Assembly (NCBI RefSeq): GCF_001186125.1
Contig: NW_014040386.1
Span: 51,661 to 88,158, forward strand
DNA: 36,498 bases
Direction of reading: 5' to 3'
From: Sphaeroforma arctica JP610
Lineage: Eukaryota
How positions within the stretch are numbered: the stretch's first letter is position 1; each line of letters starts with the position of its first letter. The translations under genes were made by a program, and so were the position numbers. A model generated the notes under the pieces. The model did no database searches, was not told where the DNA came from, and saw only the letters and a list, made by a program, of their open reading frames with translations. Shown here piece after piece: positions 503 to 36,498 of the stretch.

Positions 503-709
503 TGTAAACTTCGATGGAAATTACTAGGTTTCATCTGAAGAAAAGTTAAAAAAAGAAAAAGGCTATTGGAGCCATCAAAGTGAATTTAGAACACTTTGGA
601 AATATTGGAAAAAGAGCTTGTATTAAATTATTTAAAGTACAAATAAAAACCAATGTATTATCTCAATTGATCTTGATATTTTAGACTGACCGGAGGCCGT
701 ATTTCTACA
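503..709 (-). repeat. Internally deleted 5' LTR of family D, inserted into the start of the methyltransferase domain of element B
   Basis: TGTAAAC...TTCTACA termini. Colinear blocks match the 614-bp LTR at 13601-14214 (e.g. gagccatcaaagtgaatttagaacactttggaaatattg). Confidence 0.8.
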
Positions 710-2557
710 CCACCTAGAATTGGTCATCCAATATGTAGCTAGTAACTTCCTAACCATCTTTTTAAAGTCTGGTACGAAGCGAGACAACATGTCGGGTAAG
801 TGATTGTGAATACCCGGTATACGTGTTATGCCGAAAGAAAATTTCGCGATCGTGTCATGCCACTGACTGACTAACTGTGAGTTAGGCTTCATGTCCTTTA
901 GGTGTTGCAATGACTTCTGATCACATAGCACGTTAAAGTGCGTGCCATATAGATAGTCCTTAAAATGAGTGAGTGCAGTAACAATAGCCAAAAGCTCTTA
1001 TTGCACGTTTGGGTAATTGATCTGAGACGAATTCATAGCCCTGCTAAAGAACTGTACATATCTTGGTTTCCCATCAATCATTTGATACAAGACGCCACCG
1101 AGTGCCATGTCGGACGCATCTGTTGCTACCATGAATGGAATAATGCGTCATCACAGTCTTTGGTCCACAGTGCGCCTTGTTTGCCTTTTATGACATCTCA
1201 AATGTCCAAAGGGCTTTAAATAACTTGCCAGGTGTGGTACTCCGTCAGACAAAAAGTTGCCGAATCCGCACATGCTGTTGACATCCTTACCCGTGGTAGA
1301 AGTTCTCCAGTCTAGCAAGTGGTCGACCTTCCCGGGATCGATCATGATTCCATCCCCGGATACTCGGTAACCCAACAGCTGAATCTCGTTACCACCGAAG
1401 TGACGTTTCTTGCTGTTGACCTTAAAGTTGTGCATGTTGAGTCTGCATAGAACCTCTCGCACAACCCTTTCATGCTTCTCTTTGGTTTTGGTGAATACCA
1501 CAATGTCATCAATGTATACTTGTACATTGTCCATGTCCCTAAACAAGTCTTGCATAATTTGTTGAAAGAACGCAGGTAACATGTGTAACCCAAAGGGGGC
1601 ACCTTTAAACGAATATTGCTGACCCTCCCAGGTAAAGGTGAAATACTTCCGGTGTGGTTTGTAGATCTTCATCTGGTGGTAGCCCTGCTTCAGGTTGATA
1701 ATGGAGAGTATCTTAGCTCCCTCCATGCGCCTGAGTAGTTCGTTTATCCTTGGTAAGTGAAAGTTGTGTGTCGGTATCAAAGCGTTAATTGGACTCATAT
1801 CCAAACACACCCGAACTTTCTTCAGCGTCCCGTTAGAGTTGAATTGGTCGACGGCTAAAAGCGCTAGGTTGCGGGAGTCGGCTCGTAGTTGACTGCGATC
1901 ACTCCGTCATCTAATCATGCTTTAACCTGTTCTCGTACGACCTGCTCATGACGCTATGCAATACAGTTACTTGTAGGACACTTAAGCTTCGAGAAATCTA
2001 CTCTCGTCAGGTCTAGACTAACGTATCCGTTATTGAATTTGAACTTAGCCCAGTCAGTGATCTGGATCTTGTCGTTCTCGAAAATCAAGTCCTTGAGTTT
2101 CTCTGTGAAGTGAGGGATCATCTCCTTCACAGTCTTCGAAGGTTTATATATCGGTTTCAACAAGTTATCGTCCGACTGATTCTTCTGTGGTTCAATCTTA
2201 GTAGGTAAGCATGTAATTGTGATACCTAATGACAATAAATCACTCATACCTACTATGAGATCATAGTCTGGTGAAGTGTTACATATGACAACTATAGTAC
2301 GTTGGTCTGTCAATGTAAACCTAAGATCGATTGCTATTTCTCTGCAAGTGATTTCTCTTTCATCAGCCAGTTTCAACATAGTTGGCTCTGACTTACGAGT
2401 TACGTCTGTTATTTTACAGAATCTAGAGGATATACATGAAATTTGCGAGCCCGGATCCAGCAACGCTTTTATTCCATGTCCGTTAACTCGTATATAAGAT
2501 TGCACGCTCGTCTTGAGGTGCGTCCTTTTGTCTTAATGACAATACCCGGTATGTTTG
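710..2557 (-). pseudogene. pol: pol of element B: aspartic protease, reverse transcriptase, RNase H and first motif of the MT domain; frameshifted
   Basis: ORFs 1954-2505 (KALLDPGSQISCIS), 1151-1810 (LPRINELL, GYHQM, APFGL, VYIDDIVV) and 632-991 (THFKDYLYG, CDQKSL, PGIHNHLPDMLSR, LATYWMTNSRW). Confidence 0.92.
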
Positions 2558-7260: not shown

Positions 7261-7660
7261 AGGGCACTAAGTCCTTAGTTGTCTACGGATGGCACGAAAA
7301 ACAAATTGCGGATAAACACCTATGTAGTAAAGTAGATGAATGACTCAATCAACTAATCTAGTACTAGGTTGATTGGTTGAGTCATTCACCTACTTTACTA
7401 CAAAACTGGAAGTGTCGCGAGTACTTCAAGTTCGTTCGCACGATCCTTAGACGAAGAAAAGAAAAAAATATTGAAAGGGCACCAAGTTCTTAGTGGTCTA
7501 CAGATGGCACGAAAAACAAATTGCGGATAAACACCTCCGTAGTAAAGTAGATGAATGACTCAACCAACTAATATAGAACTAGGTTGATTGGTTGAGTCAT
7601 TCACCTACTTTACTACAAAACTGGAAGTGTCGCGAGTACTTCAATTTCGTCCGCACGATC
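7261..7660. repeat. Two tandem copies (period 215 bp), each containing a 78-bp near-perfect palindrome (7324-7401, 7539-7616)
   Basis: Arms gtagtaaagtagatgaatgactcaa(t/c)caa and ttggttgagtcattcacctactttactac are reverse complements with 1-2 mismatches. Confidence 0.92.
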
Positions 7661-7991
7661 CGCTCCTGGGAGGACTTCTCTGAACATTTCACGCTGTGAT
7701 CACCACTTCTGAGCGGGTTTCTCTGAACTTTCCGCGCTGGGCAATAGTGCTGGCCTAGTACCATTTGATTGGCACCCAAGACAAATATAAAACTCGCGAC
7801 CTTCCCGGTTTTCTAGTAAATTAGGTAAATGATTTAAATTAGGACATTCACCTTTTTTACTACACCTAGTTGGAACTATACACTGCGTCATAAGTTATTA
7901 CTGTTTGTTTGCAAACTTCGGCGATCTTTTGTCCCGCATCCGGTTCATACATATCTGATACAGCAAAGATATACAGTATCCGATAAGTGGG

Positions 7992-8187
7992 AGGATAACG
8001 AACATAACTTGATAAGAAGTAACTTCATTTAACTCTCTTAGTGAGAGTCTTATAGGGCTCTACCGCTCAGGGCGGGAGCCTCTTTTGCTTTTGACATGGT
8101 GTCAGTATATTGATGACACCGTTCAGTTCACGTACCGAACTATATATATTCTTGAGATAAATATCTGCTAGTTTGATATGGCTAACA
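7992..8187 (-). repeat. Copia 3' LTR (outer 6 bp degraded)
   Basis: Direct repeat of 13009-13204. Preceded on the minus strand by the purine tract at 8188-8195. Confidence 0.9.
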
Positions 8188-8344
8188 CTCCCCTGAAAAC
8201 AGTAGATGTAGAATCAAGAGAATGAAATCTTATGCTAAGTCTCCCCTGGATTGATTCTCGGAGACAGTCTCGGGCTCGGGCGGAACCTCTCGCAATAGCG
8301 TGCGGGTATGTCGCGAGTGTGTAGGACGTGCAGTGTTTTTGGTT

Positions 8345-8752
8345 AAATATTGTTAGGTTATCCGCGGAAGTGACGTATTCGACTCGAATGACCCCGCTTT
8401 CCTGGAGTTCCTTGATATGTTGTACGCGAGCATCGATGTGTTTAAGGTGCTTCGTAGGACCAGTGGATGTAATGGCATGTATCGCTGATTTGTTATCGCA
8501 CTGTAATACGGTAGGGGTCTGCTGAGAGAAGCCGAGTTCCTCGAGAGTATTTCGAAGCCATTGAATATGTTTGGCGGCCTCGGACGCAGCAAAATATTCT
8601 GATTCCACAGACCTAGTAGAGATGGTTTTCTGCCGATGAGACTTCCACGCTACGAGTATGTGGTTGATTCGTAGGATAGAGCCTGTTGTGGAGCGTCTGG
8701 TGTCCGGGCAGGAAGCATAGTCGGCGTCAGAGACAGCATCGGCAATTGGGGG
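8345..8752 (-). pseudogene. Copia RNase H domain
   Basis: Reads SDADYASCPDTRRSTTG, AWKSHRQKTISTRSVESEYFAAS, CDNKSAI, KHIDARVQHIKE and YVTSADNL. Confidence 0.93.
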
Positions 8753-10401
8753 TGTAAGATTCGGTCTGTTAAGGCAATATTGACGTCTTAGAGTAGTTAA
8801 ACGTAATAAAGTCTTCTAAAGATCGAATGAAATTAAAGCAAAATATACATAATTAGTCTTTTAGTAAAGTTAGGTTTGCCTCGTGAAAACAGCAATACTC
8901 TGAAGGATTGTGAGGCTGAGACATTGCCTATATATAATCTTCTCAGTACTGCTTTCGCCGAAGAATTTTATTTGGTGTTTCGTTGTCGCTCTATTAGAAA
9001 CCATGGTATGTTTCGTTGTCGCCCTATTAGAAATTATGGTACGTTTCGTTGGGGCGAATCCGAGAGACTCATAAAATCATATCTTTAGACAAAAAGAAAA
9101 GAAAAAAGAAAAATACTCCTGATGTCCATAGTTATTGCATTAACCAATAACTTGCCACTTATCAAGAATTACCGACTTAGCCTTCATCAGACTGGCACAT
9201 CTGGTTGGCTGAACGGAGGATAAACTAAGCAACGCTAATAGTCCTTAGAAACCTATGTTCGGTTGAGCCATCTTGCTACCGAAGTATTCAGATTTAAATA
9301 GATTTGGAAAGTAAATATAGTTCTATTAATAGAACTAGACCAAATCCTATGTTTTGGTATTTTACTGGGGCCTTTTAATGGCCTTGTCCAAATATCTGAT
9401 CTGTAAAATGGAAAAGGTATTAATTAATAAAACCGTTAAAAACCATTTAGGAAATTTAAGTTCCTCGTACTATTAAGAGTACCTTTATAGTTTACATACT
9501 GCTTAAGAGTACGTTTATAACATAAGAGTCTAATGTGGAGGCCCGGCTATTACACAGCCCCCACCCAGCTTTGAGACCCAGGAGAAGCAAGCTGTTCACT
9601 CAAGCTGATTATGGGTCAAAAAGCGAGAAAGGAAAAAAACGGGTCGAAAACATTTAGTAGCATAACGTATAGTTTTTGTTTCTCAGGCGGAGAAGTTAAG
9701 CGTTCTCGGTTACCCTGTGAGTTTTAGGCTTAGGTCCAGTAGGTCCGTGGTGGTCGACTGGACGTTTCTTACGCTTCAGTGTCTTAAGCACATACGAAAG
9801 GTGAGCATTAAAGCTCGGGATAAATGCTGTAGGCGGGTAAGTTTTAACTTCCGTGCCTTCAGACGATGGAAACATGCTATCTTTTTCAGCTTGTGACTTA
9901 TGCAGGCGTTTACGCCATTTTCGATTAACGGCTTTTAAATAGTCTTGATTATCGAAAGCATATGAAGTCAACTCAGCGATTGTACCGTCTATAAAGCGTG
10001 TATGATAATATGTATAGCCTCCCTTATCCGTTCTCCATATAATGTCTTTAAATTCAGAACGATCAAGAGGGGCATTAGAGTCATGTCTTCTTGCGAGAAT
10101 AATCTCAGTAGTCGGAATCCGACTAGTGCCTATATTTAAAGTACTGGAACCGTCGGGTTTATTAACCTCATAGGTTCCACTTTTAACGTCAGCTACAGAG
10201 ATTATATATGGTCCTATCCATTTAGATGATAATACAGTAGCATCGGAATTACGTTGACGGGTGTAAACTCTGTCTCCAACCTGATACTCTTCTATCTTTT
10301 TGCATAACGTATAGTTATTGTTTCTCAGGCGGAGAAGTTAAGCGTTCTCGGTTACCCTGTGAGTTTTGGGCTTATGTCCAGTAGGTCCGTGGTGGTCAAC
10401 T
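8753..10401 (-). mobile_element. 3' fragment of a family A Gypsy element (integrase C-terminus, PPT, 3' LTR 8753-9554) sitting where the Copia RT should be
   Basis: 8753-9554 is the reverse complement of LTR 21613-22364 / 29616-30345 (TGTAATAGCC...CGAATCTTACA). ORF 9696-9971 is nearly identical to 29217-29476. Confidence 0.92.
9696..10299 (-). pseudogene. Gypsy integrase C-terminus: GPY/F module plus chromodomain-like tail
   Basis: Open frame YQVGDRVY...LSSKWIGPYII...SEFKDIIWRTDKGGYTYYHTRFIDGTIAELTSYAFDNQDYLKAVNRKW. Confidence 0.8.
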
Positions 10402-10859
10402 TTGGCGGGCGCGTTGGCGTGTCATCCGCATGTTATTGGGTAGGTGGGGTTTGTTGAATGTTCCTGTATTCTGGCGGGACTCGAGTAATAATCCACAAAG
10501 TGTACGGGATTTTGGGTGACGCTGAATATGTGGTTGTAATGCGGTGTTGATACTATCTTCCATAGCTGGCGCAGTGTGCGATGGAATTGTTGTGTTGGGC
10601 GTAGGCAGAAGTGGGCGTGGTATGGAGTGTGTTATTGGGGTAGGTAGCAGTGCAGTTGAGAGATCCCGCAGATTATTGTCATTTGTTGTGGCTGGGTTGA
10701 CGATCTCGTCTGTTTGTGTACCAATAGAGGTTGTTGTGGTGATGTGTGTGTTGCTGGCAGGGAACCTATCCGGGTGAAGCGCTAATGTTAATTCCTGAAT
10801 GGTGGGTATGTCAGTGACAGCAGTATCAAAGTGTGGAACTGGGGTGTTGCCTACCATAG

Positions 10860-11615
10860 TCCATTTTGGAAAGACGTGGTAATTGAATTTAACATCACGA
10901 GAGTGACATATTTCACCCGTCTTTAGGTTGAGGATCCGGCATTCGTCATAGTATTTGGACTGGCGGTCGTGGCCTAAGTATACACTGATATTGGCGCGGT
11001 CGTCCAGTTTGCCGTCGCGTGACTAATTGATGAACGCAACTTGACAACCGAAAGGGTGTATGTGCTTGATTCGTTCAGTGAGTTCGAATCCCCAGAAAAC
11101 TTCCAATGAAGACTTTTGATCCTTGTTGATTTTGTTGTTGTGTACAGATTTCTTCAATGCTGCAAACTGAATGGCCTCGCCCCACATGTTGTCCGGCATG
11201 TTAGCTTGTTTCATGTCGCTGAGCATGATATCATGAAGTACGCCGATAGCACGCGTGGAGTGCAGGGGTGGCTGTGGGAACGTGTAGTATCTGAATATGT
11301 TCCTGGGTATTGACTTTGTTGAATGCTTGGGAAACGAATTCACCACCTCGATCACATTTAAGCTCGCGTAGTGTAGCGAGGATTGTCGTTGTCAATCTCT
11401 GTATAGAATTGGTCAAGTACACCGGTGGCGTCATCTTTGTGTTTGAAGTTATAGACCAACGTGTAGCCGCTGTTGGCATCCACAAATTTGATATCACAGG
11501 TGTAGCCGCTGGGGGTGATGGGCAGGCCGGTGTGGCGATCTGCATGGAAGACCGTACCTACAGGTGGGAGTGTGTCATTGTCCTTGCTGGTGTGCCGGAC
11601 TGTTCGTCGTCGCAT
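10860..11615 (-). pseudogene. Copia integrase core and SH3-like C-terminal part, frameshifted
   Basis: Reads VFHAD, FVDANSGYTLVY, CDRGGEFVS, MWGEAIQFA, HPFGCQV, GKLDDRA..VYLG and SRDVKF. Confidence 0.9.
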
Positions 11616-11623
11616 TTTTCCTT

Positions 11624-12806
11624 TTACAGAAGGAGTGCAGAATTGAAGGTCGACAGGGTGGGCAATAGTATCTGCTTCGGCAGTAAGTAGTGCAGCCGCC
11701 CACGCTGGTGATCCCCTTCATACTTGAGCGTGAGCCGGTAGACCTCATTGATGTCGAGTTTATCAGTGTCCATAGCGAATATTGCTGAACGAAGTAATTG
11801 GTATTCATCGCTCAGGCTGTATAGCAATGCGCAGATCAAGTACTTGTCAGGGATGTGTTCACCAACATCGAGGAGACCTTGGCGGATTTCCTTCAACTGC
11901 TCCATACTCTTTTCGGTAGATCCAGTTGCCATAGATGATGTGAGGCGCTTCATTGCGTCACAGAAACGGCCGTGACTGCCGGTGTTGTTAGTAATGCATA
12001 TGTAATTAAAGAATTCAGATGGTCGTTTGACATAGTGATTCTTGTATACCGTGTTGACAAGTTCCTTTTTGATCGAATCGATCATTATGCGTCGGCAGCG
12101 CGCATCAACAAGTGCGTCGACGCCAAAGATTTCTTCGCAGTTGGGGTGTAGTCTATGGAGCCCTCCGAAGTAGGCAAGCTTCATTTTGATACCCATGAGC
12201 CAATTACCGAAGTTCTCCCAGTTTTCAAGCTTGGTGCGGTTGTAGTTGTCCTTATATTTAGGACAGTCAGAGAGTGGAACATCTGGGTCAATAGCAGAGA
12301 TACCATATCTCTCGGCATATGAAGATGGTTCATCATCTGTGGTAGTTGATGCTTTGAGCGCGCCTATAGTGTCGAGCGCTTCATGGTGGAGCGCGAAGAA
12401 GTTACCTGTAGGTTTCTCGCTTTGTTCGTAGAGACGTGATTGTGCTGTTGTGAGACGTTCTGATATTTGTTTGTGTTCGATCTGTAGTGTCTCGTGTTTT
12501 TCTAAGAGGACTTTGTGTTCGTTCCTTAGTTGCACGTTGTGGCGTTTGTAGTTATCTAGGTCAGCTTGCACATCTTTCTTCTATTTCTTGGCGTGGTATA
12601 GTTCACTACGGGCCATTGTGAGATGTGCAAGTACAATCGCTGTAGAGCCATAAGTTGTAGTTCGCGGATGACGTTGTTAATAGCTTCTAAATGGTTGTTT
12701 GCGGAATCGAGTGTCGTATATCAAGTATGCGAGGCCAAAAATCCCGAGCGAAGGTATTAGCTGCCTCTAGAGAAGTGAAAGCTTTAGGCCAATTTATTGT
12801 CTCCAT
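11624..12806 (-). pseudogene. gag: Copia gag with coiled-coil-like N-terminal extension
   Basis: ORF 11624-12571 has ENFGNW..IKMKL and LKEIRQGLLDVGEHIPDKYLICALLYSLSDEYQ. The upstream part is interrupted and the start near 12806 is inferred. Confidence 0.8.
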
Positions 12807-12995
12807 TGTGTTACGTGTGTGAGCTTTGTTTACGTGTGTGATCTTTGATTACGTGTGTCAGTTTAGCTGACTGTAGTGATCTGTGAGACGTGTGGGGGGG
12901 GGAGTAGTATCTGAGGGTCAGAGTTGTTTGGGGGGTGGGGTAGGGTGTAGTTGAGTGCTTGTTGTAGTTTTGACTTACTAACGTGTGGGTAAAAA

Positions 12996-13008
12996 CAGGC
13001 CCATAACC
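12996..13008 (-). promoter_or_regulatory. Copia primer-binding site of the half-tRNA-iMet type
   Basis: GGTTATGGGCCTG immediately follows the LTR ...TCTTACA, the type used by Drosophila copia and yeast Ty5. Confidence 0.85.
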
Positions 13009-13204
13009 TGTAAGACGAATATATCTTGATACGAAGTAACTTTATTTAACTCTCTTAGTGAGAGTCCTATAGGGCTCTACCGCTTAGGGCGGGAGCCTCT
13101 TTTGCTTTTAACATGGTGTCATTATATTGATGACACCGTTCAGTTCATGTACCGAACTATATATATTCTTGAGATAAATATCTGCTGGTTTGATATGGCT
13201 AACA
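13009..13204 (-). repeat. Copia 5' LTR
   Basis: TG...CA, 196 bp, direct repeat of 7992-8187. Confidence 0.93.
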
Positions 13205-15117: not shown

Positions 15118-15815
15118 TGGCATGATACGACATCAAAGTTTTACTTCAAAATCAAACATTTACCAGGAATAAAGAATCATTGCCTGATATATTATTCAGG
15201 TTTAACCCCGACTTTAATAATTCGGTGCGAGAGCTTTAGACCACTGATTAGAAATGTAATCTACAGTTTGAGCTAGCCAAAGAAAATAGTAATTTTTTGG
15301 GGTCACATATCATAGATATGTTCGCTGGGCATCATAATGCACAGTTAAAAGACTTCAGGACGCCAAATCCTCCTCAAGGAGATGCTTTTCAAACAGATAT
15401 CTATAAACATAATGTGTGGGCAAACCCACAGTGGCAATTACTTGCCCAGCTACTAAATTACGTTCATATACTTTAAGATATCATAACGTTGTATTATCCA
15501 TTACGGAAATTGGATCCGTGGCACACTAAACTCATAAGTATGATACAATGTGAGCTTGTATATGTTCATAAAGAAGTAGATTTCTTCTTCTATTAGGGTA
15601 CTCGAGTAAATTAAAAAACTCCATGGAGACATAATGTCGTATTGGTCCTGCAGGTACTACCACATGCACACCCTCTGATATCTTGTTGATAGTATGTACT
15701 GTATAAGAGCGCACTAAATACCTCTACTACAAGCAGCACAGGGGTCTGAATACGCGAGTTGTGTATTCTCAACACCCTACCTTTGTTGTGGAAGAGCAGA
15801 TTATTAGTGTGCAAT
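15118..15815 (+). pseudogene. Degenerate RNase H end plus adenine methyltransferase domain of a family A-related element
   Basis: Reads HLPGIKNHLPDILFR, SHIIDMFAGHHNAQL, GDAFQTDIYKHNVWANPQWQLLAQLLNYVH and KTPWRH, with several stops. Confidence 0.88.
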
Positions 15816-15874
15816 GTAGTAGACTTTAAATAAAGTGCAAATGTATATATTTAATTATGACCTCTCCTTTGGTT

Positions 15875-16275
15875 TTCCGTTTGTGCTGGTGTACAGTCGC
15901 TTGGGCTGGCCAGGGTAAAACCCTATATGGCTAGTATGAGAAACCTTCTGCAGAACACTTTAACACTTCGCTGCTGTTCTATTTCGATTCCTCTGCAACT
16001 AAATTTTACGTTGATCACATGATGCCTTTCCACATAGATTGTGACTTACACAGGGACGCAGCTATTTTTAGAATGTTGTGGTTGACAAACTTAATCAACT
16101 TTCGGGAGTCGGTTGAGAAAATGAATCAGCTTTCGGGAGTCGGTTAAGTATTAACTCAACTCTCAGGAATAAGATAAGCAACTATATTAGCTCTTGGGAG
16201 TGAGCTAACTGATGATTTCTATAAAAGAAAGAGAGTTTCTTGCTGAAAAATCTGGTCAGAGACCTATAATCTCTC
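15875..16275 (-). repeat. Inverted copy of the 14511-14905 repeat
   Basis: The reverse complement contains aaaaatagctgcgtccct, atcatgtgatca, tgcagaaggtttc and cctggcca.cccaagcg in the same order as 14707-14866. Confidence 0.8.
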
Positions 16276-16289
16276 AGGAATGAGGGTAA

Positions 16290-16895
16290 TATCCTCTCCT
16301 GGCTCACGCAAAGCCATATGTTAAGCACCATAATGTAGTAGAGGCACTAAAAAATGCCAAGCGTAATGGAATAGCACATCCAAAGCTAGCAACATAGCGG
16401 ACAAAGTGTATCAGTCCCGTACACACTGTGATCTCCGCCAGATCAAGCGCTATGGGTTCGCACCGTTTAAGAGTATAACAAACAGTGTTATATGGCACAG
16501 CACACAGGCGACCGCTATGTATGCCATTTCTTTGACGTGGCGTCACAATTTAACTTGCTCTATCTTCTTTTAAAGGATAAGAGTATGCACCCCGCTGCCG
16601 AATTAGGTTGCTAAGTCTTTGCTGACCACGGGCGGCCAGGTTTGTTCTATATGTTCTGATAAGGGTAGCGAGTTTGTGACGTAATAGAATCACTAGTACT
16701 CGTATCGAACATTTGCCACAAGACAGGTGTCCAATATAAACTACAATCGCAAGGCGCAAATGAAACGCGCCATAGAAAGCTTAAGTTCTCGCGTATTGCA
16801 CCAGCGGACAATGCAGAAAATTGGTCTTACAATCTTAGATGGGTACAAACACAGATGAACGAATGTGCTGATCCTGTTACAGGAACAACACCCGC
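16290..16895 (+). pseudogene. Degenerate integrase fragment of the same family A-related element
   Basis: Colinear with 28095-28715: SHML.HHNVVEAL, YQS.THCDL.QI.RYGFAP, CHFFDVAS, SDKGSEF and QSQGANE. Confidence 0.85.
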
Positions 16896-17989
16896 TTGGA
16901 AAAAAAACATTTCAACATTGTTACTCGACCTAGATGGAGGTGAATTTTACCTCTACTATAAGCGGTGTTTGGTTGTTGGGAGTGAAGTATTCTCCATCTG
17001 AGGCTGCTTTGAACAATCCTATGAGCTTATCGCTAATTAATTGGTATATTCCGGGGATTTTGTTCCGTCAAGGTTGCACAATGTTTCCGTTGCCTTTTTT
17101 GCTGACAACTTTGTATCGTATACATGGCGCTGTCTTTTGTTCATTTTCTTGGTAACGGAGCATGATTAAATCACTTGCATTGAAGCTCAGATATTGCCTT
17201 TGGAACCTGCGGTCAAATACTGCACGAAATTGTTCTTGATATGTTGATATGTTGGTTGCACAGCAGTGGCATAAGATTTCTGTGTGCTCGTTCGTTTGCG
17301 CCTAAGACTTTAGGTTGGTATGGTCGAGAGATTAGGTGTTGTGTTGGCGTTTGTGTAATGATTTTTGACAGAATATAATTGACATATTCGGTCCCTTGGT
17401 CAGTTTGTGTAACCTGTTTACACATTATAGGCATCAGCGTTCTTGCTACTGTAGCTGCTGATTTGTCCATCATTGATCGGGGTATGATGTAGAACGAGTG
17501 TACTTCTAGGTTTTGCCTCTTTTTGACTCAAGCAGTGGTTATAAAATGACAACTTGTTTTTTTTCCCCTGGCAACGCGGCCGATTGATTGCAGGAGTTGG
17601 AATATCTTTTAGCGGATTTGTTCTTAAGACACGGTACGGTACACAACCCTTGATGTATCTTTGTACATGTTCCCGGATTTGTGTCTGGTTGTGTTCATCT
17701 ACTTTCAGCTTGCTTATTGTCTCCTCTTATGTGCATTGACCTATGTTATGGTATTGCTCTATGATATTGGCTTGTGCCTCATATGTAATCTCATTTGCGT
17801 CATTTCCATTGTTCACTGTTTGTGATGCTGAGTTGAGGCATGTATGGCTGATTGCTTTTGCCTAGTATCAAAGTGTGGAGATTTTGTGTCCTTTTATCTT
17901 GCTACCAGTGTGACGCCTCATGAAGTTTCCCATAAGCTTTTGTGCCCTCCTTGACAAGCGTGGTATTTGTGTTTCCAATAGCATCGGAC

Positions 17990-18284
17990 CTTCGTCTAAC
18001 AAGAACATGAATTCGAGGTACCACGTTGCATTCGGGTAGTTTGGTAGGCAATTAATGATGCTGGTCGACTCAAATACGATTTTGTCGAGGACATCAGATA
18101 TGAGTTCCCAAGATGAGTTCGCCCATGGGTTTTCTTCTTGCGCCCACTTTTGTGATAACGTATGTTGTTATTTGGTGTAGTATTTGTCCGTGTGTACATT
18201 GTGTGCCGATGCGAACAGATGTACTATGAACTTGCCAAATCTTCTTTCTGCTTCTTTGTAGAACCTGGGGTGTATTTTACAGTC
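17990..18284 (-). pseudogene. Adenine methyltransferase domain of family C (degenerate)
   Basis: Reads DCKIHPRFYKEAERRFGKFIVHLFASAHN...*QHTLSQKWAQEENPWANSSWELISDVLDKI...CLPNYPNATWY in one frame with one stop. Confidence 0.85.
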
Positions 18285-18562
18285 TATGGTTGATATAGTT
18301 ATTGGCTTGTTTTTCTTCAAGGTGGTGTACTTTTGGTTGTTGTGAGTCATTGTGGTTGTTTCTTTTAATACCTCTGAAGTTCTGGCATTAAGAGCGTCAT
18401 TATATATACGTGACAGTATATCTGCCATTTGGTTGTCCTCATCCGGCACATGCATTATTGAGAAGCGGTGGCGGAATGTTCTTTGCTACCTATTTAGCTA
18501 GCATTGGGTGTAACATAATTTGTGTAAGTGATTCATGATCCGTCCAAAGTGTTCTGTTCCAT

Positions 18563-18742
18563 TGTAGTAAAAGTCCCCTTAAACCACTATCAGTGTGGAG
18601 TTAGAATTAGTTTACAATTAATTCACACGAGGTGAATTATTTGTAGACCAAGTAGACAATCAAATATAAGAATAAATACACCGCACTGAGCCTCAGGAGG
18701 ACTCAGTAGGTTTTAGTATCGTATTTTGATGTGTTTACTACA
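18563..18742. mobile_element. 180-bp solo LTR (family E) inserted in the family C RNase H
   Basis: TGTAGTAAA...TTTACTACA 9-bp inverted ends with a perfect CCAT duplication (18559-18562, 18743-18746). Removing it rejoins the RNase H coding sequence. Confidence 0.85.
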
Positions 18743-20195
18743 CCATCCTTTAATGTAGTCCGAGAAGTGCTTCAGGCTGTAAACCAGCGCGAGTAGCTCC
18801 TTTGGTTTTAGCGGCATATCGCTATTTTGCTGTGTTCAAGTCTTAGAGAAGTACTAAATACCTCTTCTCAATCCGTCAATCACTTGGAATTAACATTTGC
18901 GTATGCCATAGTTACTGCCATCGTTCATAATCTGAAACGGCACCCTATTCGTTGGGTATGCCAGTGTCGCGGAGCATCCTATGGCCACTTTGAGTTCTTC
19001 TCACTTATTTTTAAGCTTCGGAGTTCATAATTTTGATATGTCTTAGTTCATTTTGACCTTCATCAAGTTGCGGAAGTGTATAGTGCTATGAGCAAAGTTG
19101 GGGACATGTCACGAAGGCTGTGGTAAGTCGATTGTTCGTTTTTGTTTCTCAGGGTCTACTTCGAGATCTTGTGTAGTGACTTTCACGCTAAGTATGTTCT
19201 TTGTTTAGATTACGAGGGCGCATTTCTGGTGATTGAGTCGGAGGTTTGCTTCGTTCAGTCTCTTGTTGAATTAACGTTTTGTCTTTCGATGTTCCTCTGC
19301 TGTGAGACTTGCAATTACTATGCCATCCACATACACCTATACTCCCTTTATGTCAATGAACAATGAACAGATTTGCCTGAACAGATTGGCCGTGACTCTT
19401 TGGAATTGTGCGGTGAGCGAGTGAAGTCTAAATGGCGCTGATTGAATGAATATTGTGGTCATCTCCATGATAATGTGAAAAGTGTCTGCTTGATTCATAT
19501 ACTAGAAAATTGTGGAACCCCCAAATGAGATCTAATTTCGAGAAGTATTGGGCTCTTGCAGGCTGTACAAAACATTTTGGTACGACCAATTTATCTTGCT
19601 CCTATTGGTGATTCATTTCTCTTGGGTCTAAGCATGTTCGAACTTTCTTGAGTAGACTTCTTTGGTCGTGTTGCCCTGTAGACAACAATGTCAAGTTCAA
19701 TGTTGTTGGCTGGGCAGTTTGTATATGTGGCTCCCTCTGAGCATTTTCGACCGTTGTGAAATGTACTTTGATATCATTTGCTGGTACTGTGACTTTGAGC
19801 TGGTAGATTGCAATGTATGTCTGGCGGTATGTTGAAATTGGTTTCTAATGACTCTGCGAGTGACTTACTAAATCTTCTTGTTTATGCTCTGAGGTTTCTT
19901 CATGTGGTATAAGTTATGATTCCCACTTTGCATCTGTTGGCCTTAATAGATTTATTAATACTGCGATATATATGCCTGTGTATGGGAGAATGTCAATACC
20001 TAGCAATATAGGTTATTTCTTGTTTGGTACGTACGGTACTTCGAAATACTATGAGCAGATGAGTCTGTCCGTTGGACTCTCACAACTGTTTGTGCTGGTT
20101 GTATGTAGCCAGGATGTGCTTTGACTGATAAATTTAGTTTTGCTATTATACTTTTGTCCATGCAGGAGCGTTGTGATCCCAAATCTACTAGCAGG

Positions 20196-21140
20196 GATCA
20201 ATATCGCCAGACATATGAAATCCCTGGTTGCAGCATCGTCTCTGGGTATCGCCTCTTTTCGCGCTTATGGCTTCCATGGCTTCAGCTGGCGACACACCCG
20301 CAACCGACTGGTGCTGTTCAAAACATTCATTCTATCCACGGCTACATATGGCCTGAACATTGTTGTCTGGGCTCCGCCTATATGGAAGGATGCGCTGGAC
20401 CCCCATAACTCAGCATTCATCCAAGCAGCAGCCATCATCACGGGCACTGAATACCCTAGGTTTCCCAAACATCAAACAAACTTACTCCACTTTTGTGGCC
20501 TGCTCTCCGCGAGACCATTCGCGGACTACCTCGGAGGTTGCCTTGGAATAGAACTCGACTAAATGGCCAGCACAAACCCACTCAACCCTCTGACGCCACC
20601 CGCCTAGGCCTACGACTAACAATCACCGCGCTTCCCGTACAGTATTTATGCCCACCTGAAAACTGCACACAAAATCACGGGCGGGCGTACACCCGACCAT
20701 GTAGCCCTCCGCCAGCGCTATGACGACTTAGGAAGAACTCAACAAAAACAAGGAGATCGCGGCAATGGCCCGCCGCCAATACCACTACCACTACCAACTG
20801 GTTATGGGTAAACCGCCAACCTCAAATGGGGACAAAGCCAGACACGACAGCTTCAACAATGGCTTCGAGCCTACACCAATCCGGCGCTGTGCTATGATTG
20901 TAACGAATACGTACATGTTCACATTGCTCGGCTACCGAACCGACGGCTGTCTCTGCCCTGTCGGGCCGGGTGGCCACAAATTCACCTCCAGCCACTTTAC
21001 CTGCATCCAACAATTGATCCGACGCATCCTGGTAGGCCCGAAACTGCCACCCATTGGCCTTGACCTCCTCCAGCAATTGCAGGAGCGCCACGACTTCCAG
21101 TCCACGAAACCTGGGATCCTTTCTTCCAGGCCAATGATAC
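20196..21140 (+). pseudogene. C-terminal (post-RT) portion of a non-LTR retrotransposon ORF2
   Basis: RLVLFKTFILSTATYGLNIVVW resembles the post-RT LINE motif. CLCPVGPGGHKFTSSHFTC is a Cys/His knuckle. Confidence 0.65.
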
Positions 21141-21149
21141 GCATGTTCT

Positions 21150-21612
21150 GTACCAGTTGAGCCGCCAGCATAGAGGTAGTCCAAGTGCCACGTATTTACA
21201 CAGGGTCTTCTCAATCGTTTTCATACATAGTCCGTGATTTGTAGATGCGTGGCCATACTTCCGGGCTTTGAAGTTGAAATCTCCCCACACGACATCTGGT
21301 TGGAAATTGCCAATCTCGGGGGGGTTTATGCATCGCCTGACGTCTTCTTCAGTAAGTGATTTGAGTGGAAGGTAGAACACGGCCATATGACCGCCAAAGC
21401 ACATAAAGGACATCGCGTACGGTGAAGAGTGTACAAGTTGAAAATTCGATGGGTGGTGTTTGGAAAAGATGCCAATACCACAGTGTGAAGGGTGCAAGAT
21501 ATTATGCCGTGTAGTGTGATTTAGAATATGGTAGTGTGTGTTCGAGCGTATATGATTAAGAAATGTGGTGTTATGCCAGGTTTCAACCACACACATAACA
21601 TCAACCTGACTT
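21150..21612 (-). pseudogene. APE-type endonuclease of a LINE ORF2, 3' part (split by element A)
   Basis: Reads VDVMCVVETWH, GIGIFSK, VFYLP and VVWGDFN. Confidence 0.88.
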
Positions 21613-22364
21613 TGTAATAGCCGGGCCTCCACATTAGACTCTATGTTATAAACGTACTCTTAAGCAGTACGAAAATTATAAACGTACTCTTAATAGTACG
21701 AGGAACTCAATTTTCCTAAATGGGTTTTAATGGTTTTATTAATTAATACCTTTTCCATTTTACATATCAGATATTTGGCCGAGGCCATTAAAAGGCCTTA
21801 GTAAAATACCAAACATAAGAGTTGGTCTAGTTCTATTAATAGAACTATATTTACTTTCCAACCTTATTTATAACTGAATACTTCGGTAGCGAGATGGCTC
21901 AACCGAATATAGGTTTCTAGGGACTATTAACGTTACCTAGTTGATCCTCCGATCAGCCAACCAGATGTGCCAGTCTGATGAAGGCTAAGTGGGTAATTCT
22001 TGATGAGTGGCAAGTTATTGGCTAAGACAATAACTAAGGACATCAAGAGTATTTTTTTCTTTTCTTTTTAAAGATAGGATTTTATGAGTCTCTCAGATTC
22101 GCCCCAATGAAACATACCATAGTTTCTAATAGAGCGACAACGAAACACTAAATAAAATCCCTTCGGCGGAAACAGTACTGAGAGGATTATATATAGGCAA
22201 TGTCTCAGCCTCACAATCCCTCAGAGTATTGCTGTTTTCACGAGGCATACCTAACTTTACTAAAAGTCTCATTTCGTTTATTTACTTTGAATTTTTCACG
22301 ATACTTAGAATTTACCTACGCGTTTATTTACTCTAAGGCGTTAATATCGTCTTCGAATCTTACA
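21613..22364 (+). repeat. 5' LTR, family A
   Basis: TGTAATAGCC...GAATCTTACA with a TATA-like TATATATA near 22188. Direct repeat of 29616-30345. Confidence 0.92.
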
Positions 22365-22490
22365 CATTTTAAAGTTAGCAAAGGTGTTAATTACTTTGAC
22401 TACTTAAGCGTAAGGTAGATTTACTACCACACAATTTTTCTTGTCTAAGCTAGTCCTTAAGAGATCAGCTAGCAGTCATAAGTTAAGATT

Positions 22491-35325: not shown

Positions 35326-36191
35326 AGGAACATAAGACTGCTCAGGGCAATTCATGACTTGTTTTGTAGACACCAGAGTTCGAGTCGGACAAGCTGCATG
35401 TAGTCTCAGCGAGTGTAATCAATGGGGAAGGTGCGCGCAAAGATTTTTTGTACTTCCTTATAAAATTCTGATTGTGATTGTATTTAAGTTCACATACGTG
35501 CACCAGTCTCGACTGGATAACGCCCTGTTCTTACGACTATCATGTCCCTCCAGCGGAACTACACTACACGCGTGGCGAAATGAAATTGATGGCATCTGTA
35601 TGTAAACATATAAATATTATTGTGAGCTAAGCGGCAGAGAGTGAGATCAATACCATGACCCTCTGGACAGAATCAGGGTCTCTGCGGAAAGAGTGGAGAC
35701 ATTGATAATTTTCGTTGAGACGCCATCCAGAGGACCATGTATGTCTTAAAAATAGATAAGACTTACCTGGTACCTCGCTTGATTTTCATGACCCCATAAG
35801 TCACAGGATTAGGTAAATAAATACAATTAGGCGATATAATAATAAGTCTATGTGACGGTTGTGTGACCTCCCCAGATATTTATTTTAGAGAGGGCCGTTT
35901 TTCTTCTTCAGAAAGTTAAACCCTAAACCCTATGGACAGTTCGGTTTTCAAAGGACAACAACTATTTTTTGTAATAAATAAAATTTGAAACGTCACGTGC
36001 ACCTTTTTTTTTCGCGGGCTTCTGCTTCTCTCACTCTATAGAGAGTCACACAGGCGAATGTATGATTCTGACGTATTGTATTTATTCTTTTTATTTTATT
36101 ATGTAAATATGTGCCTGTCCAAGTGTCCATATCTTTTAGACTCTCCAAAGCGACTATAATCTATTCATTGTCAACGTTTGCACTGCCGACC

Positions 36192-36498
36192 ATGGATTTA
36201 GACGATATCGAAGATATTGTTAGGGAAGGTGACGACTTTGGGTCGGCTGGTAGTGGGGTACGGAAGTACGTCGTTCCGCGAGCGCGCGTCACTACCAGAA
36301 AGGTACCAATACTGTCCAATCGTGACTACCAGAAAGGTACCAATACTGTCCAATCGTGATTGTGTTGCATCTACAGCATGTACTGTTGTCATCATCCCTA
36401 CGCCAGACTTCTTTTCATGAATGTCTTTTGGATCTTACAGTACACCGATTTCTTCGTATTTTTAACGATCAGCGAACAGATATATTTGCCTATTGAAG
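36192..36498 (+). pseudogene. Possible decayed PIF/Harbinger-like transposase N-terminus, with a 34-bp tandem duplication at 36288-36355
   Basis: MDLDDIEDIV...LSNRD, then HPYARLLF and VHRFLRIFND in shifted frames, loosely resembling the P.Y....F...F....FLRI motif. The duplication is certain; the family call is weak. Confidence 0.3.

Follow-up and report, generated by a model that had tools for sequence, protein, structure and literature searches.

Positions 20191 to 16933, on the minus strand of the analysed window (the whole stretch of 36,498 nucleotides of Sphaeroforma arctica DNA), are confirmed as one decayed Ty3/Gypsy element, a pseudogene with a Dam domain between RNase H and integrase. 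On the whole, this region is likely a dead and fragmented copy whose Pol carried an adenine-methyltransferase-like domain (MT) in this position; the domain probably goes back to a single capture from a DIRS element, and two element families of the window, A and C, would have inherited it, the decayed copy being a member of C. Its domains are colinear with those of intact relatives, which keep the NPPW motif of the methyltransferase intact, and families A and C share the ancestry of their reverse transcriptase-RNase H (RT-RH) and integrase (IN) parts. The architecture, known as the DAM-LTR, and the ichthyosporean lineage of these elements have already been published (Fernandez-Moreno et al., bioRxiv 10.64898/2026.05.21.726589, May 2026); the additions of the present work are a degenerate chromodomain and a PCIF1-like predicted fold of the MT. 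The remains of the family C copy are the following.

16933..20191, minus strand: decayed family C element, internal portion of a Ty3/Gypsy DAM-LTR (PR-RT-RH-MT-IN), colinear with residues 59-1214 of the intact protein P0006
19965..20191, minus strand: aspartic protease remnant, ends approximate (P0185 residues 59-150, 61-83% in short pieces; Pfam protease at P0185 46-145)
19180..19736, minus strand: reverse transcriptase remnant, ends approximate (RVT_1 E=9.7e-7, 29.1 bits, slightly below the cut-off; 47-61% to P0006)
18408..19030, minus strand: RNase H, interrupted by an insertion and ending in ADILSR at 18425-18408 (RT_RNaseH_2 E=7e-13, RT_RNaseH E=4.6e-9)
18288..18407, minus strand: RH-MT linker, in the same frame as both flanking domains (D.LSR to DxFA distance)
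17880..18287, minus strand: predicted Dam/PCIF1-like N6-adenine methyltransferase domain, pseudogenised (PF05869 E=2.1e-8; 61% to P0006, 54% to S. arctica SARC_09892)
17637..17783, minus strand: integrase zinc-binding (H2C2) remnant (36% to P0006 814-891; Integrase_H2C2 at P0006 849-896, E=0.0017)
17261..17608, minus strand: integrase catalytic core remnant, frameshifted (rve E=0.001-0.004; 70% to P0006 939-1025)
16933..17256, minus strand: remnant of the integrase C-terminus, following the loss of about 78 codons (P0006 1104-1214 matches 17256-16933)

The motifs quoted for family C in the earlier note on this DNA were all located on the minus strand, i.e., DCKIHPRF at 18284-18261, VHLFASAHN at 18224-18198 and CLPNYPNATWY at 18050-18018 in the MT, as well as TDQGTEY at 17404-17384 and GANER at 17302-17288 in the integrase. 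The RH-MT-IN order described there was likewise recovered, and the element was found to reach further upstream, through the RT (with VYVDGIV at 19336-19316, minus strand) and the protease to position 20191. Residues 59-1210 of the related protein P0185 match 20191-16942 of the minus strand piecewise and in order, with many frameshifts and stops. When the stops were read as X, the family C segment matched the Pfam Dam profile (PF05869) with 34.5 bits (cut-off 28.1); of its two MT halves, scanned one at a time, one gave E=0.0043 and the other no match, and the integrase core by itself is weak, its rve match lying below the cut-off. The PR-RT-RH-IN order with a Gypsy-type RT and RNase H places the copy in the Ty3/Gypsy class, in contrast to the DIRS class, which is defined by a tyrosine recombinase, a DIRS-type RT and the lack of a DDE integrase; here, a DDE integrase follows the MT and the RT-RH is of the Gypsy type. 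An element was considered a DAM-LTR when Pfam Dam PF05869 was detected within an LTR-type Pol with E below 1e-5, and the values obtained were 2.1e-8 for the window copy and 2e-12 to 4e-15 for P0006, P0185 and P0186.

The decay of the copy is extensive. The DxFA motif of its MT reads HLFA, and the motif-I aspartate is lost; a stop codon is present at 18170-18168, and frameshifts occur near 17973 and 17917, both in the C-terminal part of the domain. Among the 295 codons of the segment, 4 are stops, versus a mean of 17 after shuffling, which is a rough sign given that about 55 of these codons are off-frame. Judged from its sequence, the window copy cannot make the enzyme. Neither gag nor LTRs were found for it within the window, the copy being truncated at both ends; it stops just short of the chromodomain-like tail seen in intact relatives, and the integrase C-terminal remnant (16933..17256) gave no match to the chromo or tail profiles. 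The insertion that interrupts the RNase H corresponds to the following feature.

18563..18742, no strand assigned: 180-bp insertion present in high copy number, MITE-like or a solo LTR, that has TG...CA ends and a 9-bp terminal inverted repeat

This insertion is flanked by a 4-bp target duplication (18559-18562 and 18743-18746), and loose contig ends coincide with its edges, at 18563 and 18742; in run X11 its summed contig depth reaches about 350,000 versus 140 at unique bins, i.e., around 2500 times. It is a real nesting event inside the RNase H, located upstream of the RH-MT junction and devoid of MT. Nine-base ends that resemble those of this insertion are also present at 7323-7865.

Relatives of the element were collected with a profile built from the RNase H end plus MT of A, B and C; at E<=0.001, it matched 1803 proteins. 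Of these, the best 150 were used and the domain scan covered 34 of the 150, many of which are intact PR-RT-RH-Dam-IN polyproteins; as the MT set came from the A+B+C profile, the choice of the compared sequences is biased in this direction. Among the proteins compared, P0006 was the top match for all six family C segments tested, with identities of 47% and 61% for the RT, 56% for the RNase H end plus MT, 61% for the MT, 36% for the zinc finger and 70% for the integrase. Two further intact C-type proteins were found, P0185 (94%) and P0186 (64%); these three RT-RH-Dam-IN proteins come from three sources and show the same order. The remaining 117 RT-RH relatives listed carry no Dam, and their top score with the MT profile was 1 bit. 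A word-based search for longer relatives, with the decayed C protein as query, left none of 949 candidates, and one with the family A region gave a single DIRS-like match among 182 candidates.

These relatives bear on the possibility that a DIRS fragment came to lie between the pieces of an ordinary Gypsy element by local nesting or by an accident of the assembly. The window is indeed a nest of broken elements, and the 180-bp insertion sits within the same RNase H. Nevertheless, the RNase H end, the linker and the MT of the window copy lie in a single frame and are ordered as in one intact protein, and the three intact C-type proteins from three sources, with the same order, refute the idea. 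Moreover, single contigs with 0 differences cover 17400-18590 in three of the four contig runs (one of them possibly the source of the window), and because these unbroken contigs cross the junctions, the RH-MT-IN junctions are not an assembly chimera. We therefore give such an accident a negligible probability; the earlier claim that the fusion is not one of local nesting was upheld by the colinear intact relatives and by the contigs that span the junctions.

At the catalytic motif the window copy reads NSSW, encoded by AAC TCA TCT TGG at 18119-18108 on the minus strand. Each serine codon is a single C-to-T change away from a proline codon, so the description of NSSW as two such changes from NPPW was correct. 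At 18116 and 18113, contigs from other copies (80% likeness) have the letters of proline codons in 4/4 runs, with 2, 5, 3 and 1 contigs; these runs probably sample one organism, one of them possibly being the source of the window, and thus do not count as independent biological replicates. P0006 has WANPPW and CVPFFPNATWF at the corresponding motifs, and in the lineage, leaving the window copies aside, NPP is retained in 17/17 members and the motif-I aspartate in 16/16. The Asn-Pro-Pro triplet is thus a property of the family, found in these 17 members and in the sister-copy contigs, as had been anticipated, and NSS is found in the window copy. Since the sister-copy contigs keep the proline-codon letters, NSSW is decay private to this copy. 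The observed/expected CpG ratio is 0.72 in the family C copy versus 0.82-1.01 in four other regions; CpG depletion was rejected as the cause of NSSW because this bias is too slight and the two C-to-T changes are outside CpG.

Two other sets of MT-bearing sequences in the window served for comparison.

21613..30321, plus strand: family A element used for comparison, a DAM-LTR bounded by LTRs (93% identity along 674 bp; Pfam; 49-71% to P0005)
15118..16893, plus strand: "family B" fragments, A-like, with MT at 15291-15605 and integrase at 16498-16893 (68% and 74% nucleotide identity to A)

The family A element has an RT-RH-MT open frame at 26046-27737 (plus strand), with the MT at 27291-27632 and NPPW kept, followed by the integrase at 28269-28622. 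B was considered as a third deep family and rejected, given that the B MT groups with that of A at 100/100. A second A-type PR-RT-RH copy at 560-2532 (minus strand) ends right where the MT would begin. In addition, segments of the gag region of family A are tandemly duplicated at 22787-24505 (spacings of about 690 bp and about 1060 bp); the repeats surround an N gap, 23458-23477, and may be an assembly artefact. The surroundings include a Copia-type element at 7998-13204 (minus strand) whose 190-bp LTRs share 95% identity and which contains gag (Retrotran_gag_2) plus an SH3 domain, with a family A 3' end and its LTR interrupting it at about 8750-10300; a LINE-like remnant at 20125-21659, with an endonuclease (Exo_endo_phos, E=3.9e-6) at 21659-21000 (minus strand), which adjoins the family C 5' end and the family A 5' LTR; an exon at 34412-35020 that probably belongs to a host membrane protein (weak match to Tetraspanin, E=5e-4); and, within 33300-36498 and ahead of this exon, a long run of AT/CA microsatellite repeats that contains an N gap.

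The age of the fusion was addressed with trees computed under LG+G4, without a mixture model. The RT-RH tree included 44 of the 117 Dam-less proteins (a quick tree included all 117), the integrase tree 25 Dam-less rows, and the MT tree 38 DIRS-like proteins and 10 of 85 unassigned ones. In the RT-RH tree, A, C and nine other Dam-bearing proteins, two of them from Abeoforma whisleri, form an all-Dam clade of 16 rows at 100/98, with none of the 44 Dam-less proteins inside; the same clade was obtained in the quick tree (SH-aLRT 97, Dam-less inside 0/117), and the integrase tree gave a lineage clade of 15 rows at 99/93 (0/25). Because A, C and the Abeoforma elements share this all-Dam clade in both parts of Pol, an old fusion, retained as families A and C diverged, is supported over a local nesting event. 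This was the central proposal of the earlier note, and the NPP kept in 17/17 members agrees with it. One inherited fusion appears to be the simplest reading for A and C. In the MT tree, C grouped with S. arctica SARC_09892 at 100/99, and the union of A, C and the lineage relatives (Abeoforma included) obtained 80/87 and contained one unassigned protein; AU tests on this tree rejected neither C with DIRS (p=0.118) nor A, C and relatives together (p=0.128), the constrained searches having possibly ended at poor optima. Hence, of the expected monophyly of the A, B and C methyltransferases and their congruence with the rest of Pol, the joint clade in RT-RH and integrase stood, and the monophyly of the MT itself is weakly supported. 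MT distances correlate with those of the RT (rho 0.55) and the integrase (rho 0.62) across 10 lineage members, near-copies included and the p-values thereby inflated; between C and A the identity is 44% for the MT, 40% for RT-RH and 27% for the integrase.

The relation to the DIRS1-type tyrosine-recombinase retrotransposons is close in several respects: they carry a homologous MT directly after the RNase H, with the DxFA, NPP[WFY] and P.[WYF]...W motifs. In contrast, DAM-LTRs have a Gypsy-type RT-RH, a DDE integrase after the MT, and a longer RH-MT linker (41-120 versus 31-37 residues). The distance from D.LSR to DxFA is 67 residues in the window copy, 64-67 in the intact C proteins, 41 in family A and 31-37 in three DIRS-like proteins, "DIRS-like" being a label given by architecture (RT present, MT C-terminal, no integrase) and not a curated one. 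The earlier note had placed C closer to DIRS, and this did not hold: the intact A relative outscores the intact C relative against 28 of the 38 DIRS-like MTs, and 5/5 C rows, 12/12 other lineage rows and 36/38 DIRS-like rows have the P.[WYF]...W motif, in contrast to 0/3 A rows. The A copy of the window has a 7-residue gap at this site. These comparisons point to A as the drifted family, rather than to C as a DIRS-like one. In a different reading, A and C would have obtained their MTs in separate events, from different DIRS donors and at one and the same site, or exchanged them later. Such a course would suit the unlike linkers of A and C, the AU test that leaves C with DIRS (p=0.118), and the at least four captures from DIRS that the preprint reports across eukaryotes (bioRxiv 10.64898/2026.05.21.726589). 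It is, however, difficult to reconcile with the scores of the C MT, whose median is 114 bits against the lineage (n=12) versus 70 against the DIRS-like proteins (n=38), with a maximum of 92, nor does it account for the total absence of Dam-less elements within the A+C clade in the RT-RH, integrase and quick RT-RH trees. We consider independent acquisition very unlikely.

The preprint describes an ichthyosporean DAM-LTR lineage (bootstrap 97%) whose hosts are Pirum, Abeoforma and Sphaeroforma arctica, derives the methyltransferase family from prokaryotic Dams, and reports higher 6mA and expression on DAM-LTRs of S. arctica and A. whisleri; the domains, when expressed in E. coli, produced no gain of 6mA (bioRxiv 10.64898/2026.05.21.726589). 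As the named proteins closest to the family C lineage belong to two of these three species, A. whisleri and S. arctica, we infer that the family C element belongs to this published lineage, with which it shares the Ty3/Gypsy Pol, the Dam domain and the NPP motif. It differs in that the window copy is a pseudogene, in that deep subfamilies like A and C are absent from the main text of the preprint, and in the C-terminal end of the proteins: the lineage is described there as being without chromodomains, and the intact C-type and Abeoforma proteins carry a degenerate one. The metagenome proteins included some other arrangements. In P0127 (522 aa, partial), a Dam (E=5.6e-11) immediately precedes a Copia-type RT (RVT_2, E=2e-65), and from this one partial protein a Ty1/Copia DAM element is possible; the word "copia" is absent from the main text of the preprint. 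P0024 and P0101 show the order Exo_endo_phos-Dam-RT-RH-integrase, i.e., a Dam at a different position plus a LINE-like endonuclease; P0101 has a protease in front, and the cluster of P0024 has n=5.

The degenerate chromodomain lies at residues 1210-1260 of P0006, 932-984 of P0186 and 1345-1395 of P0010. Almost the full Pfam Chromo profile aligned to P0185 (E=0.015) and P0186 (E=0.0042), at 15.6-17.4 bits against a cut-off of 25.1, and an Abeoforma protein obtained 22 bits with a custom chromodomain profile. HHalign of 10 lineage tails against 8 canonical chromodomains gave 97.1% (E=5.7e-11). A tail profile, which includes the module before the chromodomain, matched 12 of 16 Dam-less proteins that have a Pfam chromodomain versus 7 of 101 that lack it; the family A-type tails of the window, at 10277-9876 (minus strand) and 29168-29293 (plus strand), match this tail profile and not the chromodomain profile. 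By eye, the central tryptophan is present in 9 of 10 rows and the third cage aromatic is absent, a pattern that resembles the group II chromodomains of plants (PMC3350952). The statement that the lineage has no chromodomain would thus hold only at the threshold used for it, the Pfam cut-off, and the degenerate chromodomain qualifies a published description. As in chromoviruses, a chromodomain-like module follows the integrase, and the lineage nests among chromodomain-bearing elements in RT-RH (100/100; 7 with Dam and 3 without) and integrase (100/98), the broader RT-RH clade having 26 rows, 23 Dam-bearing and 3 Dam-less; unlike in chromoviruses, the chromodomain of the lineage is below the Pfam cut-off, and these trees hold no reference chromovirus clades. 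A literature search that was not aimed squarely at either subject found no paper making the chromodomain or the PCIF1 point for DAM-LTRs, and PCIF1 is nowhere named in the main text of the preprint.

The likeness to PCIF1 comes from one partial AlphaFold model, that of SARC_09892 (128 residues, pLDDT 89). With this model, PCIF1 took the first six Foldseek ranks (lowest E=2e-3, no match lying at E<=0.001), with TM scores of up to 0.68 versus 0.39-0.43 for E. coli Dam. The VIA structure comparison gave PCIF1 a Z of 9.6 (rmsd 2.9, 118 aligned, 17% identity), and values of 7.1 for the next match, 6.3 for E. coli Dam and 6.1 for T4 Dam. The predicted MT fold is therefore nearest to the RNA cap enzyme PCIF1/CAPAM, a cap-specific adenosine N6-methyltransferase (PDB 6irx), and not to E. 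coli Dam; the common part is the catalytic core only, and the likeness is one of a predicted fold. A PDB sequence search with the A+B+C profile gave a catalase match at E=0.42, which was dismissed as chance. By predicted fold and motifs, the MT of live copies would fit an N6-adenine methyltransferase.

Pol products travel inside the particle together with the RNA and cDNA of the element. In live copies, the MT would be packaged into the particle alongside the RT and the integrase, and, while reverse transcription proceeds, would methylate adenines of the intermediates that the element itself forms, be they single-stranded or RNA:DNA hybrids; each new copy would thus enter the genome already bearing 6mA, a mark that the AMT1 system of the host would maintain as transcription-permissive. 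This methylation of DNA intermediates is put forward tentatively, with a probability that we place somewhat below even; the hybrid-substrate model is the proposal of the preprint itself (bioRxiv 10.64898/2026.05.21.726589). The substrate preference of PCIF1, reported as ssRNA > hybrid > ssDNA > dsDNA (PMC9178792), would fit the negative assay on dsDNA, and would fit a role on RNA only equally well. The enrichment of 6mA on DAM-LTRs is a correlation, of which host AMT1 alone could be the source.

Beside the marking of DNA intermediates stands the view that the MT acts like PCIF1 on the RNA of the element, through cap-adjacent or internal m6A that stabilises the transcript or helps its translation or packaging, the DNA 6mA being a by-product of transcription and host AMT1. 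PCIF1 was the top structural match in both Foldseek and VIA, the DIRS1 methyltransferases were assigned to the PCIF1 clade by Iyer et al. (PMC4738411), and the DNA of E. coli gained no 6mA in the preprint. Nevertheless, the domain is a bare catalytic core of about 135 residues, in contrast to the 467-494 residues of the matched PCIF1 chains, the tree of the preprint derives the family from prokaryotic Dams, and a common fold says nothing on substrate; an action on RNA is doubtful, although conceivable. The MT could also transfer no methyl group at all and be conserved as a pseudo-enzyme for the binding of SAM or nucleic acid, or else as a spacer in the structure of Pol. Iyer et al. (PMC4738411) judge the DIRS1 enzymes likely inactive, the heterologous assay in E. 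coli was negative (bioRxiv 10.64898/2026.05.21.726589), and NPP[WFY] is present in just 4 of 10 chromodomain-bearing DAM-LTR rows. The retention of NPP (17/17) and of the motif-I aspartate (16/16) in a lineage with RT-RH identities of 35-42% speaks against the loss of activity, which we hold to be unlikely.

The RT-RH parts of families A and C are about 40% identical, and their MT is equally conserved and catalytically intact in sequence; because such deep families keep a motif-intact MT to this degree, selection on the domain has probably been maintained for a long time. A broader view, speculative and in our opinion improbable as it stands, is that the "ichthyosporean" DAM-LTRs are cryptic chromoviruses that descend from one MT capture older than Ichthyosporea, made in an ancient chromodomain-bearing Gypsy lineage that corresponds to the 26-row RT-RH clade, and that their PCIF1-type enzyme marks RNA or RNA:DNA, not dsDNA. 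If true, one capture would have given rise to the ichthyosporean DAM-LTRs as well as to many unnamed metagenomic DAM-chromoviruses, and the failed E. coli assays would be explained. After the negative assay on dsDNA, the PCIF1-like predicted fold points to capped RNA, ssRNA and RNA:DNA hybrid as candidate substrates, and this question of substrate bears on the long-open role of the methyltransferase of DIRS and LTR elements.
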